IMG/VR virus record: IMGVR_UViG_2822699256_000006
Origin: an uncultured virus (IMG/VR IMGVR_UViG_2822699256_000006)
Taxonomy: Duplodnaviria > Heunggongvirae > Uroviricota > Caudoviricetes
DNA: 64,000 bases
Direction: 5' to 3' (one strand)
Part shown: piece after piece, positions 32,088-62,405 of the stretch
How the letters are laid out: every line of letters starts with the position of its first letter
Position numbering within the stretch: position 1 is the first letter of the stretch
Notes under the pieces: model-generated
The model's database searches: none
Seen by the model: only the letters and a program-made list of their open reading frames with translations
What the model was told of the DNA's origin: nothing
Made by a program: the position numbers and the translations under genes

Positions 32088-32336
32088 ATGGCAATTGTAA
32101 AAATTGTATCAACAGAGGATATGGCTATTTTAGAAAAATATCTTAAAGATCAAGATAGTGTCATATTAATTCCTGAAGAAATTGCTAAAGAAAATAATGT
32201 AATGCATTTAAATGATACAACAAATGCTTATTATTCTTACCAATCAGAGCCTAATCTTTTTGTAGATATTGTTGATAATAAAGAGCATGGGTTCATGGAT
32301 TACTTAAATTTAAAAGAAAAAGGGGAAGTTGAATAA
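32088..32336 (+). CDS. hypothetical protein
   Basis: GGAGTGG RBS. Confidence 0.6.
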   Translation: MAIVKIVSTEDMAILEKYLKDQDSVILIPEEIAKENNVMHLNDTTNAYYSYQSEPNLFVDIVDNKEHGFMDYLNLKEKGEVE

Positions 32337-32551
32337 TGGAACAAACTAAAGTGCAATTCACTGTTAAACCAGGTGGAGCTATTAATATGGAAGTCGTTAA
32401 TGGAGTGGGTCAATCATGTGTTGATGTAACTCAAGAATTAGAAGTATCGTTAGCAAAAGCTGGTTCTAGAAAATCAGATGAAGGAAAGAAACCAGAGTAT
32501 TATGATGGTGGTGCAAACATTTCTGCATTCAATGATTTAACAGGAATGTAA
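32336..32551 (+). CDS. DUF2997 protein
   Basis: VQFTVKPGG...EV..GVGQSCVDVTQELE......KPEYY. Confidence 0.7.
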   Translation: MEQTKVQFTVKPGGAINMEVVNGVGQSCVDVTQELEVSLAKAGSRKSDEGKKPEYYDGGANISAFNDLTGM

Positions 32552-32624
32552 TACATATCATCACTGGATGGCGATACAGTCGCCCATCCTAATGAATAAG
32601 AAATGTTTACTTATAATAATGTAG

Positions 32625-33380
32625 ATTATTTCTTATTGATTAGGGTGTTCTCTTTTAGACTTTTTGTTCCACCCCTTAAAAGAGCCAACAAAGTCGAGTT
32701 TATATTTATTTGACTCCATAGGTGCGTATGAGTGTGAGTAAGGTTGCGGAGCTGCAGATCCAATGCTGAGATACGGCTTAATAGGCATACTAGGAAAAAT
32801 AGATGCGGTGCGCCCAATCCACTGTTAATGGGATATTGGGTAGTCTTGAAGGACGATAACCAGGACAGCTGACAGTCCTAAAAAGCCAAGAGAAGAGAAC
32901 TAAATGTTGGGTTCTCCAATTTACAGCCAAGCGGTGGGTGAGGGCATGTATAAGGGTAGTGGAGATGTGATACGCCTCCCTGACAGAAAAAGTGCGCAGA
33001 ATCTAAGGTCTTTCATCCTTTATTCCCCAAAACAAAAATAAAGGGTACTCCCAAATAAGCAGAGGGGTTAGTCATGTTCCTCCAAAACAACATGAAATTA
33101 TATTTTGTTCGCTCCCCTCTGTTTATTCGGGAGTTTTATAAATCAGATTGTCTCCTATAACTAATAATGCTGATTGAAGTAGGTGAAATCCCTACGCCCC
33201 CTTCAAAACTTAAAAATATTGGCAAAGATGTCTTGCGAGGATATATTTCTTCGCTCGTCATCACGTGAAATCAGGTATAAAAATATGCAAACGAGAGAGG
33301 AGAGCACACCCCTTAACCACCCTTTCCGCCTGATTTCGGGTGATGGCGATTATACATGGCCATTATTTAAACAAACGTTT
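32625..33380 (+). ncRNA. candidate large, highly structured ncRNA (GOLLD/ROOL-like size class; family not confirmed)
   Basis: about 750 nt with no credible ORF, raised GC, TATAAT at 32612-32617, many local helices and long-range complementarities. Confidence 0.65.
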
Positions 33381-33402
33381 GATTAATTAGGAGGAACAAG
33401 CC

Positions 33403-33657
33403 TTGCAAAGCAAATTAGCTCAATTAAAAGAACAGATTGCGGAAGCACAACAAATAGGGGCAAAGTTCATTTACATTATTGTAAAGAACCCAGAGCTTAA
33501 AGAGAATGAAATTATTATTAATCCTATTGTGAATGCAGATGCAAAAATTAAATACTTCGAAAAAGCATATGATGAAAATCTATGCCTAAAAAATAAAAAT
33601 GAAATTGAGATTGTTGATTTTGGATATTCTCATGAAATTTCTGATGAAGTTTTGTAA
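33403..33657 (+). CDS. hypothetical phage-like protein
   Basis: AGGAGG RBS; EIIINP..N...KIKY..KAYDENL pattern. Confidence 0.7.
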   Translation: MQSKLAQLKEQIAEAQQIGAKFIYIIVKNPELKENEIIINPIVNADAKIKYFEKAYDENLCLKNKNEIEIVDFGYSHEISDEVL

Positions 33658-33673
33658 TAAGGAGTGAATCATA

Positions 33674-35380
33674 TTGACAACAAAAGATGAAAAAGAAATC
33701 AAAGCAGGTGTAGAGCATGAAGCTGCCAATCCCAAAACTAGGACTCGCAAGCAAAATAGCACTAAAGCAACTAAGCAAAAACCCGCAACTAGCGAAAAAA
33801 CTGACAAACTGGAAAGCTCCGAAGAAAAAGTAGTATTAATGGTGCCAGTTATTAGTGATGAACCGGATATTTCTAAATACGTTACCAATGTAAAAGGAGA
33901 TGTATATGCCATCTCTGGCTTACCAGAAGAGTTTATCGCTACTTTATTTGCATGGGTATCCCGTTCACCTAAATCCTTTAAAGAGCATCTTAAAACCGCA
34001 TTAAAAGAACTTAACTATGAATCATCTGCTGGTCACTTTGGGGCTCTTACGGAAAAAGCAAAAGCCTTTCATGAGAAATGGACTGTTGGATATGGTCATA
34101 GTTCTGTAGCAGAACATGCTGTAGCTCACGTTGGCATAGAAAAGGTATCTCGATTAGCTTCTGCTGAATTAGAATTATCTAATCCATTTTTAAGTATTAC
34201 AGAGTATTCGCAGCGTTACCAGAAACCTAAACGAAATGAATGGTATAATCCATTCCCTGAATATGTGAGTCATAACGGTCCAACTAGGGATATGAAGCCT
34301 AGTACATGGCATCGTGAGTTTGAGAAGTTTATGCATGATTCATTTGATGCATTTGAACAACTTGTTGATGGGATATACACTGCTTTAAAGAAAGAATTTG
34401 TTAATACAAAAGAATATAAAGAGTTACAAGCAAAAGGAGATACAAAAGCGATTGATCGTGAATTATCCAAGTTAGAAAAATTAGCTTTTGAAGATGGACG
34501 ATATGCATTACCTTTAGCTATGTACACTCAATTAGGAATGACTGCAAATGGTCGTGCTTGGCGTGATTCGATTGCACAAATCGGAATATCTGACCATAAA
34601 GAAGTTCATGACCTTGGAGACAACTTAAAAACAGAAATCACTAAAGTGCTGCCTGTTTTATTGAAGTATGCAACACCTTCTCAATACCAGCAAAATTATA
34701 AAAAGAGAATGCAATCTCATTTTCATGATTCGGATTATAATACTTCAGGTCGCTCTAGCGTTAAATTACATACTGTAGATCATGAAGATACAGCAATAAA
34801 TGAAATTATTACACATCTACTTATTGAGAACGAAAGTTTAACATATGTAGCAGCAAACAACATAGTTAAAGTAATGGATAAAGAAAAGAAATTAGAAATG
34901 ATTCAGGATATGTTGTTTGAAATGCAACACTTTGACACTCCACCAGAATCATTCAAACAAATTCAATATAAAGCTTCTTTCTTAATTTCAGAAGCGAACT
35001 GGCATCAATTACTTCGACATAACAGAAAAACAGATTTTACATTTGCTAAGCCAACAACTAAATTTGGTATTAAGATCCCTCCAAGAGTTAAGAAATTTGG
35101 TCTTGAATATATCTTGGAAGACATTGCTAAGAAATCAGAGGAACTGTATAATAAGATGGTAAATGCATTACATAAATCAGAAGCTGAATATGTTGTACTG
35201 AATGCGCATAAGCGTCCAATTGCAGCTAGTTTCAATTTATGGGAAGCATATCACTTAATTAATCTTCGCACATCTGATGAAGCCCAATGGGATATCAGAG
35301 AAACATTTGAAGAATTATATGAATTCTTATGTGCAGTACACCCAACTTTGATTAGTAAAGCAAAACGTCGATTATCATAA
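33674..35380 (+). CDS. thyX: flavin-dependent thymidylate synthase, tandem two-domain form
   Basis: GHSSVAEHA, EYSQRY, RYALP, TANGRAW; second domain QLLRHNR...NL....HLINLRTS..AQWDIR. Confidence 0.85.
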   Translation: MTTKDEKEIKAGVEHEAANPKTRTRKQNSTKATKQKPATSEKTDKLESSEEKVVLMVPVISDEPDISKYVTNVKGDVYAISGLPEEFIATLFAWVSRSPKSFKEHLKTALKELNYESSAGHFGALTEKAKAFHEKWTVGYGHSSVAEHAVAHVGIEKVSRLASAELELSNPFLSITEYSQRYQKPKRNEWYNPFPEYVSHNGPTRDMKPSTWHREFEKFMHDSFDAFEQLVDGIYTALKKEFVNTKEYKELQAKGDTKAIDRELSKLEKLAFEDGRYALPLAMYTQLGMTANGRAWRDSIAQIGISDHKEVHDLGDNLKTEITKVLPVLLKYATPSQYQQNYKKRMQSHFHDSDYNTSGRSSVKLHTVDHEDTAINEIITHLLIENESLTYVAANNIVKVMDKEKKLEMIQDMLFEMQHFDTPPESFKQIQYKASFLISEANWHQLLRHNRKTDFTFAKPTTKFGIKIPPRVKKFGLEYILEDIAKKSEELYNKMVNALHKSEAEYVVLNAHKRPIAASFNLWEAYHLINLRTSDEAQWDIRETFEELYEFLCAVHPTLISKAKRRLS

Positions 35381-59001: not shown

Positions 59002-59044
59002 TTAAGCGAGTTTCTTCCTATTATATAGGAAACTATTTATAGAC

Positions 59045-59079
59045 AAAAAAAGACCCTCTGCAATAGAGGGCCTCTTTTT
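59045..59079. terminator. bidirectional terminator ending the + strand array
   Basis: A-run, ccctct...agaggg stem, T-run. Confidence 0.7.
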
Positions 59080-59116
59080 AGGAAAATCATATATATTCAT
59101 ATGACATATGTTCTGT
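59045..59116 (-). ncRNA. candidate ~70-nt small RNA
   Basis: minus-strand TTGCAT-17-TATAAT (59151-59123) about 70 nt before the terminator; no ORF. Confidence 0.4.
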
Positions 59117-59499
59117 ACTTTCATTATAATAGCTTTTTACAATTTATGCAATCATTAATGTGAGTGAAATAGCGTTGAATTATTTCGTTAAAGAGGGAGG
59201 AGGATAAAATCTCAATCTATAATCTAATTTTTTTATTTCGTCTCAAAAAACAAGAATACTTTTTGTTTTGAGATATGAGATTTTCATAAGAAATACTTTT
59301 TATAATAATAGAAAATAGTATATTAGCATTCTTCCATCTTTATGTAAATTTATATAGAAATTAAATTTTATACAAACTTATAATTATACTTAATATCTCA
59401 TAAATATAAGTAATGTAGTCTCTATGAGATGGGATTTTTTTACTTTTCACAACTTCCTATAAGATAGGTTATGTAAACTAACTAAAAGTAAGTAGGTAA

Positions 59500-59649
59500 A
59501 TAAAGCAAAACCCTCCTGATCGACAGGAAGGCTTGTTTTGCTTTATGCACTTTTTATGAGTGAATCTGATTTTATGAATTGAAGTGTACGTCGCATGTTA
59601 TACCCCTACAACATGAAACTAATCAGAGCGTCCTCTGATGTATCGATAC
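59500..59649 (-). ncRNA. candidate ~150-nt small RNA (may encode a 17-aa peptide)
   Basis: minus-strand TTGATA-17-TATAAT (59684-59656); terminator hairpin at 59502-59544. Confidence 0.5.
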
Positions 59650-59743
59650 CTCTTTATTATAATAAAAATGCATAAAGATATCAATCAGAATTTAATAACT
59701 AAATTCTTACGATTACCAGAAAGAGGAAGCTCCTTTTTAGCTA

Positions 59744-59899
59744 CTATTGTTCTTCTATTTCCAATCTTGCGAAAGATACATTTGTAGTTGATGGTTCACT
59801 TGCCGCTTCAATTTTAACTTCCTTAGAATTAGAAATAATATTTAATAGTTTTTCTATGTCCTTCTTTTCACCTTGAATCTTTAAATCTACTTTAGACAT
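59744..59899 (-). CDS. 51-aa hypothetical protein
   Basis: AGGGGG RBS; MSKVDLKIQGEKKDIEKLL... Confidence 0.6.
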   Translation of the reverse strand: MSKVDLKIQGEKKDIEKLLNIISNSKEVKIEAASEPSTTNVSFARLEIEEQ

Positions 59900-60228
59900 G
59901 CCATATTCCCCCTGTATCCTTAATTTGTAAATCCCCTCTTTTATCTTATTATATCCTCTAAGATCGTGCAATCTATCTGTTTTACTAAATCATACAAAAC
60001 ATTAAATTTATGTAAATCTCCCTTTTTTTATGCTATACTTTTATTGAGTCTATTAATCGTCATTTTTCGGCAGCCCTTAAAATACATATAACAAGGGTTG
60101 TTCTTTTTATTTTCAGAATTTTCTGTGATTTATTGAGAAATGGTATATGATGGATATAGTCTTGTCTAATTTCTGTTATGATATTTATTAAGATATATCA
60201 TATATATATATGGGATGAGGAGGATACT

Positions 60229-61323: not shown

Positions 61324-61451
61324 AGAAAGCAATATCTAGTTTAATCGGAATTATTACAGTTTTAACCTTGACGTTTGGTGTTCAATCACCTGTGGGAGAA
61401 CAGAAAGCTCCTGATATCGTTCAATACGCACATGGAGATCATGGTGGTTGA
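61320..61451 (+). CDS. phr: Phr signalling pre-peptide, 43 aa (not in ORF track)
   Basis: overlaps the rap stop; signal peptide MKKAISSLIGIITVLTLTFGV; C-terminus QYAHGDHGG. Confidence 0.85.
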   Translation: MKKAISSLIGIITVLTLTFGVQSPVGEQKAPDIVQYAHGDHGG

Positions 61452-61489
61452 GATCCTATTTTAATGTACACTGAATAATTACTAATTCA

Positions 61490-61516
61490 AAGGGAAGAGT
61501 CATTTCTTCCCTTTTT
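61490..61516 (+). terminator. terminator after phr
   Basis: aagggaaga...tcttccctt followed by a T-run. Confidence 0.75.
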
Positions 61517-61551
61517 ATATTGTTTGAACTTGTATATGCTATCATTTCTTT

Positions 61552-61719
61552 TTAGTGAAAAATATTCCTATGCATAGATTTTAATAATTCGTTATAGTGA
61601 TTACACTCTTTTTCAGTAAGATCACTCATTGTTAATTCCTTCACAGAGCCATCTATGTAAATACCTACCGGTATGTAATTTTTGTTCTTTTCTTTAATTC
61701 CAATTGCAATTCTAATCAT
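61552..61719 (-). CDS. 55-aa hypothetical protein (not in ORF track)
   Basis: AGGAGG RBS; MIRIAIGIKEKNKNYIPVGIYIDG... Confidence 0.55.
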   Translation of the reverse strand: MIRIAIGIKEKNKNYIPVGIYIDGSVKELTMSDLTEKECNHYNELLKSMHRNIFH

Positions 61720-61868
61720 GTAATCCTCCTATATAAACTTGAACGTAGTAAATTTGAATACTCCATTTATCGGATATTCATTCCCTAAACAAAGTAAAAC
61801 TCATAAACTCTAGGCGCACACCCTTATGAATTTTACCTCATCATCTACTTGTACTTAACTCATCATTT

Positions 61869-61994
61869 TTACTCATTGTCTGAAATAGTTTCTGCATCAT
61901 ATGTAGTTAAAATTGTTTCGATTCTTTCTAAGCTGCTTTCTAAAATTTGTCCTACCATGATTAATTGTTGAGTGGTTTGAGATAAAGTAGACAT
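61869..61994 (-). CDS. 41-aa acidic helical protein, probably SOS-regulated (not in ORF track)
   Basis: AAGGGG RBS; MSTLSQTTQQLIMVGQILESSLERIETILTTYDAETISDNE. Confidence 0.6.
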   Translation of the reverse strand: MSTLSQTTQQLIMVGQILESSLERIETILTTYDAETISDNE

Positions 61995-62018
61995 GTAAAA
62001 AATTCCCCTTTCGAAAAT

Positions 62019-62072
62019 CGAACTGATGTTCTTATCTGCATTTATTATAATTGAACATCCTTATTTAGTCAA
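62019..62072 (-). promoter_or_regulatory. sigma-A promoter with LexA (Cheo) box
   Basis: TTGACT-17-TATAAT (62072-62044); cGAAC-tgat-GTTCt at 62019-62032. Confidence 0.7.
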
Positions 62073-62225
62073 TTCAATTACCAAATTCATTATAACAGCA
62101 TGAAGAATTATCCAACAATATATAATATTATACAAATATAGGATTTTTTTACTATTATTTAGCTATTTGATAATTAATATTTACCAAATGATAGTTACTA
62201 GTTAATATTAATTAAATAAAAAAAG

Positions 62226-62250
62226 AGCTACTGATATGAAATCAGTAGCT
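62226..62250 (-). terminator. terminator
   Basis: agctactgat-N5-atcagtagct with an A-run on the left. Confidence 0.75.
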
Positions 62251-62264
62251 TAAAAATTTTGACT

Positions 62265-62381
62265 CTAGTTAGCGAAATAAGTTACTACCCCTATAATAAT
62301 CGGGATAACAATAAAAATCGCCAGACACCAAAGTACAATTTTGGAAGTTGATCTTTTTCTAGCAGGTTTTGTATCTTGCAC
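62265..62381 (-). CDS. 38-aa single-pass membrane peptide (not in ORF track)
   Basis: AGGAGGTG RBS, GTG start; basic N-terminus followed by IVLWCLAIFIVIPIIIGVV. Confidence 0.6.
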   Translation of the reverse strand: MQDTKPARKRSTSKIVLWCLAIFIVIPIIIGVVTYFAN

Positions 62382-62405
62382 TTAATCACCTCCTTTATCT
62401 AAATA

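Follow-up and report, generated by a model that had tools for sequence, protein, structure and literature searches.

The window analysed here is a 64,000-nucleotide stretch of DNA from an uncultured virus of the Caudoviricetes (IMG/VR record IMGVR_UViG_2822699256_000006), and in gene content it resembles a module for replication, recombination and nucleotide metabolism from a phage-like Bacillus cereus-group plasmid of approximately 200-260 kb. Its genes encode Dda-like and UvrD helicases, SSB, a UvsX-like recombinase, a Holliday-junction resolvase, a primase, a sliding clamp, a radical-SAM protein, an AAA ATPase and a replication initiator. Among public records, the nearest is B. thuringiensis plasmid NZ_CP097261.1 (L001; 259,656 bp), which aligns to 97% of a 20-kb query with an identity of 90.8%. 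Within this module lies an 851-nt gap (32552-33402) that is devoid of ORFs of 70 aa or more and has a GC content of 0.405. The whole window stands at 0.333; of its 13 gaps of at least 250 nt, this one alone exceeds 0.35, the rest ranging over 0.265-0.342. The ORF-poor, GC-enriched island described in the first-pass annotation is thus real. ORF-free gaps of more than 1 kb also occur at 59002-60177 and 61324-62405, and these are AT-rich (GC 0.28-0.29), unlike the gap considered here.

The gap is flanked on both sides by genes of the + strand (Table 1). Upstream, the DUF2997 gene matches its Pfam profile in full (positions 1-47 of 47) and is syntenic in all related plasmids; downstream, a small ORF (orf84) precedes a long thyX gene. 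A suspected kinship of orf84 with the first post-gap ORF of the B. licheniformis plasmid locus L021 was rejected, the two being unrelated. The ThyX protein itself, at 568 aa, is about twice the usual length and contains two Thy1 stretches; relatives comparable in size, at 24-34% identity, occur in Thermoanaerobacterium, Myxococcota, NC10 and an archaeal MAG. No tRNA gene was called by ARAGORN in the window, and no RF00005 match was obtained in 32400-33600 at E-values up to 10. The repeat finder detected no iterons in the region, only short, two-copy direct repeats, and the promoter/terminator scan found neither a convincing promoter nor a canonical terminator. The TATAAT that had been pointed out ahead of the region is present, in the loop of a 20-nt inverted repeat, although the scan makes no + strand promoter call there; its last T is altered in a natural variant (32617 T>A) recovered from DNA run X14.

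Table 1. Features of the gap and its flanking genes (window coordinates; the two arms of a helix are separated by a slash).
Feature	Position	Strand	Remarks
DUF2997 gene, 71 aa	32336-32551	+	Pfam PF11211, E 2.6e-9; upstream flank
Part A, variable spacer	32552-32742	+	Hairpins 32565-32590 and 32585-32604/32628-32647, the latter enclosing TATAAT 32612-32617
Module B as in RNA libraries	32743-33014	+	Contigs of three soil metatranscriptome runs
Module B conserved core	32803-32984	+	Covariance model R2
H1	32813-32821/32829-32840	+	Module B hairpin
H2	32862-32866/32875-32879	+	Module B hairpin
HP-A	32895-32901/32910-32916	+	Module B hairpin
HP-B	32922-32928/32943-32950	+	Module B hairpin; loop 32929-32942, AAGCGGUGGGUGAG
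H5	32961-32964/32976-32979	+	Module B hairpin
10-bp hairpin	33015-33046	+	Predicted; directly after longest RNA contig end
I1	33047-33134	+	20-bp hairpin with 46-nt apical part, followed by UUUUAUAAAU; z -6.94
Two small hairpins	33141-33175, 33179-33195	+	Predicted; invariant between window and L001
C2	33230-33352	+	Leader motif of about 120 nt, model R3
C2 P0	33235-33241/33248-33254	+	Helix
C2 P1	33255-33264/33340-33349	+	Helix
C2 P2	33266-33275/33329-33338	+	Helix
C2 P3	33292-33300/33321-33328	+	Helix
C2 apical loop	33301-33320	+	Contains CACCCCUUAAC
84-aa ORF (orf84)	33403-33657	+	PHROG 3915, E 8e-18; AGGAGG ribosome-binding site 33390-33395; downstream flank
Long ThyX gene	33674-35380	+	Pfam Thy1, E 2e-41; downstream flank

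A coding signal is lacking in the gap. Its 12 stop-to-stop frames (39-82 aa) yielded no Pfam match and one weak match only against PHROGs (frame 32738-32869, E 0.001; PHROG 38295), a lead that was rejected when tblastn of 50,697 phage records gave nothing beyond E-values of 2-8. What the gap does possess is secondary structure. On the + strand, 32625-33380 has a folding energy of -221.5 kcal/mol (z -5.58), which none of 20 shuffles equalled, versus a z of -1.17 for the - strand. The signal is unevenly spread, with z-scores of -7.81 for 33015-33385, -3.50 for 32552-32802 and -0.60 for 32743-33014, the last of which folds no better by itself than shuffles (48/200 as good). The repeat finder recovered inverted repeats at 33047-33067/33114-33134 (21 nt, 90%), 33255-33275/33329-33349 (21 nt, 86%) and 32942-32953/33350-33361 (12 nt, 92%).

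By blastn, the region matched a single plasmid record of 72,556 (L001) and none of 50,697 phage records. L001 aligns with 32803-33400 at 93.2% identity, differs there by six indels of 1-3 nt over some 600 nt, of which five break the reading frame, and wholly lacks 32560-32802. That 243-nt stretch is present in both the window and DNA run X14, and its absence removes the first 60 nt or so of the RNA seen in metatranscriptomes (below), so L001 may carry a 5'-shortened module B. When L001's 35 substitutions were mapped onto the + strand fold of the window alone, five pairs were broken versus 10.8 +/- 2.1 expected for substitutions placed at random on like bases (P 0.008); for the - strand, the same test gave 11 broken pairs versus 14.3 (P 0.12). 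The consensus fold of the window and L001 contains 163 pairs, of which none is broken, six are changed on one side by way of G-U and two are compensatory, both within helix 33266-33275/33329-33338. The strand-asymmetric G-U pairing and the substitution patterns favour an RNA on the + strand, and the tRNAs and flanking genes of the relatives lie on the same strand as the modules described below. The proposal of a non-coding region with conserved + strand RNA structure is therefore upheld by fold z-scores, by covariation and by the lack of coding signal.

Module B is a row of five hairpins. A covariance model built on 32803-32984 with the long-range consensus structure (R1) scored only 12.2 bits in Paenibacillus rhizovicinus plasmid NZ_CP048288.1 (W05), at a place that coincides with a 19-nt exact BLAST match. 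A model rebuilt with local hairpins (R2) reached 35.8 bits at the same place (E 4.2e-10) over its full length, and the long-range structure was rejected for module B on that comparison. The W05 copy falls in an unannotated gap of 1.33 kb that follows dnaN and three small ORFs. R2 also matched the syntenic gap in P. urinalis plasmid NZ_CP118109.1, which measures 1.6 kb and likewise follows dnaN (W04; 16.3 bits, E 0.00125, R2 E-values near 1e-3 being unreliable), as well as L054, a W04-like 206-kb IMG/VR contig found by a pattern scan of IMG/VR and then scored with R2 (13.5 bits). A match of similar score inside an annotated gene (W02:86608) was judged to be chance, as was an R1 match inside a gene (W03:66383), and the membership of W04 and L054 thus also rests on synteny, the shared loop motif and collinear blastn alignments between a Paenibacillus plasmid and the window, covering 32853-32970 (E 5.5e-4) and 32639-32770 (E 0.004). 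The latter, weak alignment (62.5% over 136 nt) pairs much of Part A with the stretch upstream of module B in that plasmid; in X14, Part A shows six substitutions and one insertion, all in 32617-32708.

Judged from the sequence, then, module B recurs in two Paenibacillus plasmids and one IMG/VR contig, beside predicted tRNA genes. Further searches added little: R2 gave nothing credible in B. licheniformis-type plasmids, blastn of the W05 gap found no match in the phage collection, exact-pattern searches of IMG/VR returned only one coding chance match (L042) and W05 itself, and a 20-mer scan of metagenomes returned only two unrelated coding contigs (L033, L034). A degenerate loop pattern hit eight loci, comprising six coding chance matches, W05 and the true member L054. 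The 14-nt G-rich loop of HP-B, AAGCGGUGGGUGAG, is identical in the window, L001 and W05. In W04 and L054, module B runs straight into a tRNA gene; these near-identical tRNA genes differ in anticodon, being Leu (GAG) in W04 (L051 3328-3399) and Ile (GAU) in L054 (1401-1472, - strand). At the end of the W05 gap (L038 3913-4033; NZ_CP048288.1 ~162412-162532), an Rfam tRNA match of 39.3 bits carries a 59-nt insert in place of the anticodon arm, receives no ARAGORN call and is followed by a terminator-like hairpin with a U-run.

Covariation within module B was counted over five sequences, as it was over seven for C2, drawn from two to three lineages each and placed on model-fitted alignments, a procedure that leans towards structure. 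For B, 97.5% of cells were paired and 17 of 32 pairs had changed on both sides, versus 6.2 +/- 1.9 in shuffles (0/500 as high) and at most 2 in slid controls. All five sequences span HP-A and HP-B, and pairing in these two hairpins is 100%. The local hairpins cccaat/attggg and gagaac/gttctc of the first-pass annotation show compensatory changes in homologues. The natural variant X14 carries four changes in the B core, three at unpaired positions and one that converts an A-U pair of HP-A to G-U.

Module B is also the only part of 32300-33700 that was found in RNA runs of three studies. Some part of this 1401-nt stretch occurs in 20 of the 24 public sequencing runs listed, with 14 DNA runs holding half or more of its words and six soil metatranscriptome runs holding 10-14%. 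Three RNA runs, from three studies, and one DNA run (X14) were aligned to the stretch. In the latter, a single contig of 181 kb carries all 1401 nt and differs by 23 substitutions and an insertion, and each RNA run contributed one contig at least 99% identical to the window (32761-32998, 32760-33014 and 32743-32934). None of these reaches a flanking gene, and all end at or before 33014. A second piece in one RNA run (33588-33627), less than 90% alike and with loose ends, was taken as unrelated. The contigs, at a depth of 2-6, attest to presence in the libraries rather than to strand, level or true ends; DNA carry-over is a formal possibility, and the uncovered parts are not evidence of silence. 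Two studies' contigs start within one base of each other at a point where the DNA run continues, a weak hint of an RNA end. That B appears to be the one part of the stretch visible in soil RNA from three studies points to an RNA of unusual abundance or stability.

Directly after the longest RNA contig, a predicted 10-bp hairpin with one wobble-compatible change in L001 leads into module I1, which contains the long stem 33047-33067/33114-33134 that had been picked out from the sequence at the start. Counterparts with similar arms are found in L021, L022 and L065, 60-70 nt past the DUF2997 stop codon (z -6.0 to -7.7), and five homologous I1 hairpins have z-scores of -6 to -8. The AGCAG/CUGUU core is kept with its G-U pair, and at least two pairs are compensatory between clades, as read by eye from the computed folds; MAFFT set the two I1 clades one base out of register, so the pair table understates conservation. 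Considered as an intrinsic terminator, I1 is a stem followed by UUUUAUAAAU, with four U versus the U-tract of at least five expected, and it was not called by the terminator scan because its apical part exceeds the loop limit. In L021 (6070-6140), L022 (3380-3500) and L065 (gap after 286), the I1-like hairpin is followed by a tRNA-like piece, comprising an acceptor stem and D-arm by eye (GGCAGTAGCTCAATTGGCTAGAGC...CTGCCA), for which neither ARAGORN nor Rfam made a call at E-values up to 0.1.

The right end of the gap is occupied by C2. Its model R3 has a single + strand match in each of five further Bacillus plasmids, immediately before thyX and ending 26 nt short of the start codon: B. halotolerans L022 (37.7 bits), B. 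licheniformis L021 (26.7), B. paralicheniformis L065 (28.3), L066 (34.9) and L067 (22.6). Three of five whole records (W01-W03) and three further loci (L065-L067) were matched, while R3 had no match in either Paenibacillus plasmid. Neither the viral contig L020, although syntenic, nor any of 18 genome-contig loci with a long ThyX carries any of the modules; in L020, R3 likewise gave no match. C2 ends 26-50 nt ahead of the start codon of the thyX unit. Over its seven sequences, 93.6% of cells are paired and 17 of 35 pairs have changed on both sides, versus 8.0 +/- 1.9 in shuffles (0/500 as high) and at most 3 in slid controls; further pair types (27 versus 27.3 in shuffles) are the one of five measures that does not exceed chance. 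Compensatory changes in homologues include helix 33255-33275/33329-33349, one of four long-range pairings that had been noted at the outset and that are all present in the sequence. The apical loop keeps CACCCCUYAAC. Several C2 pairs take the G-U form in most of the sequences, and on the window R3 scores 154.8 bits on the + strand versus 22.4 on the - strand, so the C2 structure belongs to the + strand. For the loop as an anti-Shine-Dalgarno element, pairing with the ribosome-binding site is favourable in the B. licheniformis type (-10.8 kcal/mol, z ~-2.8), but the window type gives such a role no support (-5.3 kcal/mol, z +0.27). A 5-bp pairing seen by eye between the HP-B and C2 loops was discarded, each loop being conserved where the other is absent.

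Taken together, Paenibacillus has B without I1 and C2, and B. licheniformis-type plasmids have I1 and C2 without B, with protein genes lying between I1 and C2; all three stand side by side only in B. cereus-group plasmids. This separate occurrence identifies the gap as a mosaic of modules rather than one ornate fold, and we put the probability at roughly two in three that it is a transcribed + strand intergenic region built of three independently conserved RNA modules with the functions proposed below. The observations behind this reading are the missing coding signal, conservation, covariation, strand bias, modular distribution and occurrence of B in RNA libraries; processing, action in trans and regulation are what the modules may do. 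The modules represent new RNA families, of a general type already known and of restricted distribution.

The first-pass annotation had instead proposed a single ornate RNA of about 750 nt, with pseudoknots and possibly of the GOLLD or ROOL class. In that case the modules would be domains of one large RNA of approximately 600-850 nt that is reduced or rearranged in relatives, as might be argued from the ORF-free, GC-enriched nature of the whole gap, from the identity to L001 exceeding that of the surrounding 20 kb, and from the 163 unbroken pairs of the consensus fold, which include a closing helix (32952-32956/33199-33203). W04 and W05, moreover, carry B in ORF-free regions of 1.3-1.6 kb beside tRNAs, which is the context given for GOLLD and ROOL in PMC5737381. 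We nevertheless consider this explanation unlikely. The parts occur apart in related plasmids, local hairpins outscore the long-range model of B on W05 nearly three to one (35.8 versus 12.2 bits), the RNA-library contigs stop at or before 33014, and no Rfam match to ROOL, GOLLD or OLE appears even at E-values up to 10. Neither of the crossing pairings from which pseudoknots had been deduced is supported: the 5' partner of gggtgt/acaccc is missing from L001, the only close homologue, and pairs locally instead in the window fold, while catgtataa/ttatacatg has two uncompensated changes in L001 and competes with the covarying 3' arm of HP-B. By chance alone, a sequence of 756 nt should contain approximately one perfect 9-bp complement, so these 6-bp and 9-bp pairings do not rise above chance. 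The homologue collection that had been suggested as a check brought out covariation in B and C2, from few homologues, and did not uphold a single ornate fold. In the window plasmid itself, the three modules may yet act as domains of a single transcript working as a whole.

Other explanations look beyond RNA structure or beyond RNA altogether. The position inside a replication gene module, together with long, near-perfect inverted repeats, would suit a DNA-level element whose hairpins serve as a replication origin, single-strand initiation site or partition site of the plasmid, but the region is GC-enriched rather than AT-rich and lacks iterons, G-U pairs and one-sided changes keep pairing on the + strand only, R3 falls steeply on the - strand, and B is present in RNA libraries; such an element seems quite improbable. 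More improbable still is a decayed gene or a set of unannotated small-protein genes, one candidate being a 31-aa frame (32946-33041), intact in the window and L001, that starts 4 nt past the Shine-Dalgarno-like GGGUGAGGG of the HP-B loop. This frame is not conserved in the Paenibacillus homologues, where the shared 20-nt block is followed by no conserved ORF. Against the same idea, and in spite of the weak PHROG match of frame 32738-32869, stand the fruitless tblastn search, the absence of Pfam matches, the frame-breaking indels elsewhere in the gap, and changes that fall in loops or are compensatory. The mosaic of three RNA modules therefore remains the preferred reading.

Known RNA families were searched for with Rfam 15, which gave no match at gathering score in the whole 64-kb window or in six related loci. 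In E-value mode (E up to 10), 32400-33600 drew six chance-level matches, all far below gathering score and all to snoRNA, miRNA and Mu-gpT-DE models; none was to a ROOL (which we take to be RF03087), GOLLD, OLE, intron, tRNA or riboswitch model. The family candidates named at the outset (GOLLD, ROOL, OLE and group I/II introns) thus all went unmatched, and membership in GOLLD or ROOL is not sustained; both of these covariance models are also unmatched in the Paenibacillus loci of module B. A group I or II intron was rejected, with no covariance match, a full-profile DUF2997 gene and an orf84 equipped with its own ribosome-binding site. Similarly, a tRNA or tRNA-like element was dismissed, as neither ARAGORN nor RF00005 makes a call in the region and the likeness of HP-B to a D-arm is by eye only. 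A sub-threshold match at L021 11921-12025 to n00280 (36 bits, E 0.012; gathering score 65) lies in a UvrD-type helicase gene, and n00280 is a Clostridioides difficile sRNA that was likewise described inside a helicase gene. A full-text search, judged on titles and abstract openings, turned up no literature on these elements or on RNA elements of large Bacillus and Paenibacillus phage-plasmids.

Comparison with characterized systems helps to place the modules. RNase III processing hairpins sit between the genes of phage polycistronic mRNAs, for example in the early mRNA of phage T7, and the stems of I1 and C2 are similarly near-perfect intergenic helices of about 20 bp in a phage-like operon. 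C2 differs from these in its conserved apical loop and fixed position before thyX, which suggest more than a cleavage site. Like riboswitches and translational operators, C2 is single-copy, shows conservation with covariation and lies shortly before the thyX unit's start codon; unlike riboswitches, it is one long interrupted hairpin rather than a multi-junction aptamer, and it matches no riboswitch family. For module B, the tRNA gene cluster of phage T4 offers a parallel, in that it encodes stable small RNAs of unknown function that are co-transcribed with tRNAs and released by tRNA-processing enzymes. The arrangement in W04 and L054 is similar in layout; the window copy of B has no adjacent tRNA. 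ROOL, too, is a structured non-coding RNA of unknown function in mobile or phage-like DNA of Bacillota. Both GOLLD and ROOL are placed in prophage or phage-like DNA, often beside tRNAs, in PMC5737381, much as the relatives of module B adjoin tRNA genes and the ORF-free tracts of W04 and W05 contain them. In contrast to ROOL, the conserved units here are a hairpin row of about 180-270 nt and a hairpin-type leader of about 120 nt, with no supported pseudoknot; in contrast to GOLLD, the evidence does not support the whole tract as one RNA.

How the mosaic might operate can be sketched as follows. The gap would be transcribed on the gene strand, within a replication and nucleotide-metabolism operon, and B would be cut from the long transcript and accumulate as a stable RNA of approximately 250-270 nt, acting in trans through its invariant G-rich 14-nt loop. 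In the Paenibacillus relatives, B forms the immediate 5' leader of a tRNA, and RNase P would therefore set its 3' end there. I1 may serve as a processing (RNase III-type) or termination/stability hairpin, parting the upstream genes from what follows. C2, a three-helix leader with a C-rich apical loop that always lies just before the thyX transcription unit, would be a cis-acting regulator of orf84-thyX translation or stability; to our knowledge, no dedicated RNA regulator of thyX has been described.

It is tempting, if speculative, to go further and regard C2 as a new class of thyX-dedicated regulatory RNA and B as a new, very abundant, tRNA-linked RNA of phage-plasmids. C2 would then sense a nucleotide- or folate-related metabolite or be the operator for an element-encoded protein. 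If either part were true, phage-plasmid biology would gain a new functional RNA class, and B would be visible in soil metatranscriptomes in spite of the rarity of its carrier. Large Bacillus and Paenibacillus phage-plasmids have barely been studied, and this one gap contains two RNA families that covariation supports, together with a long hairpin that is conserved, all at clear positions. It also illustrates that a long, GC-rich, hairpin-dense gap can mimic a single ornate RNA and yet be a mosaic.
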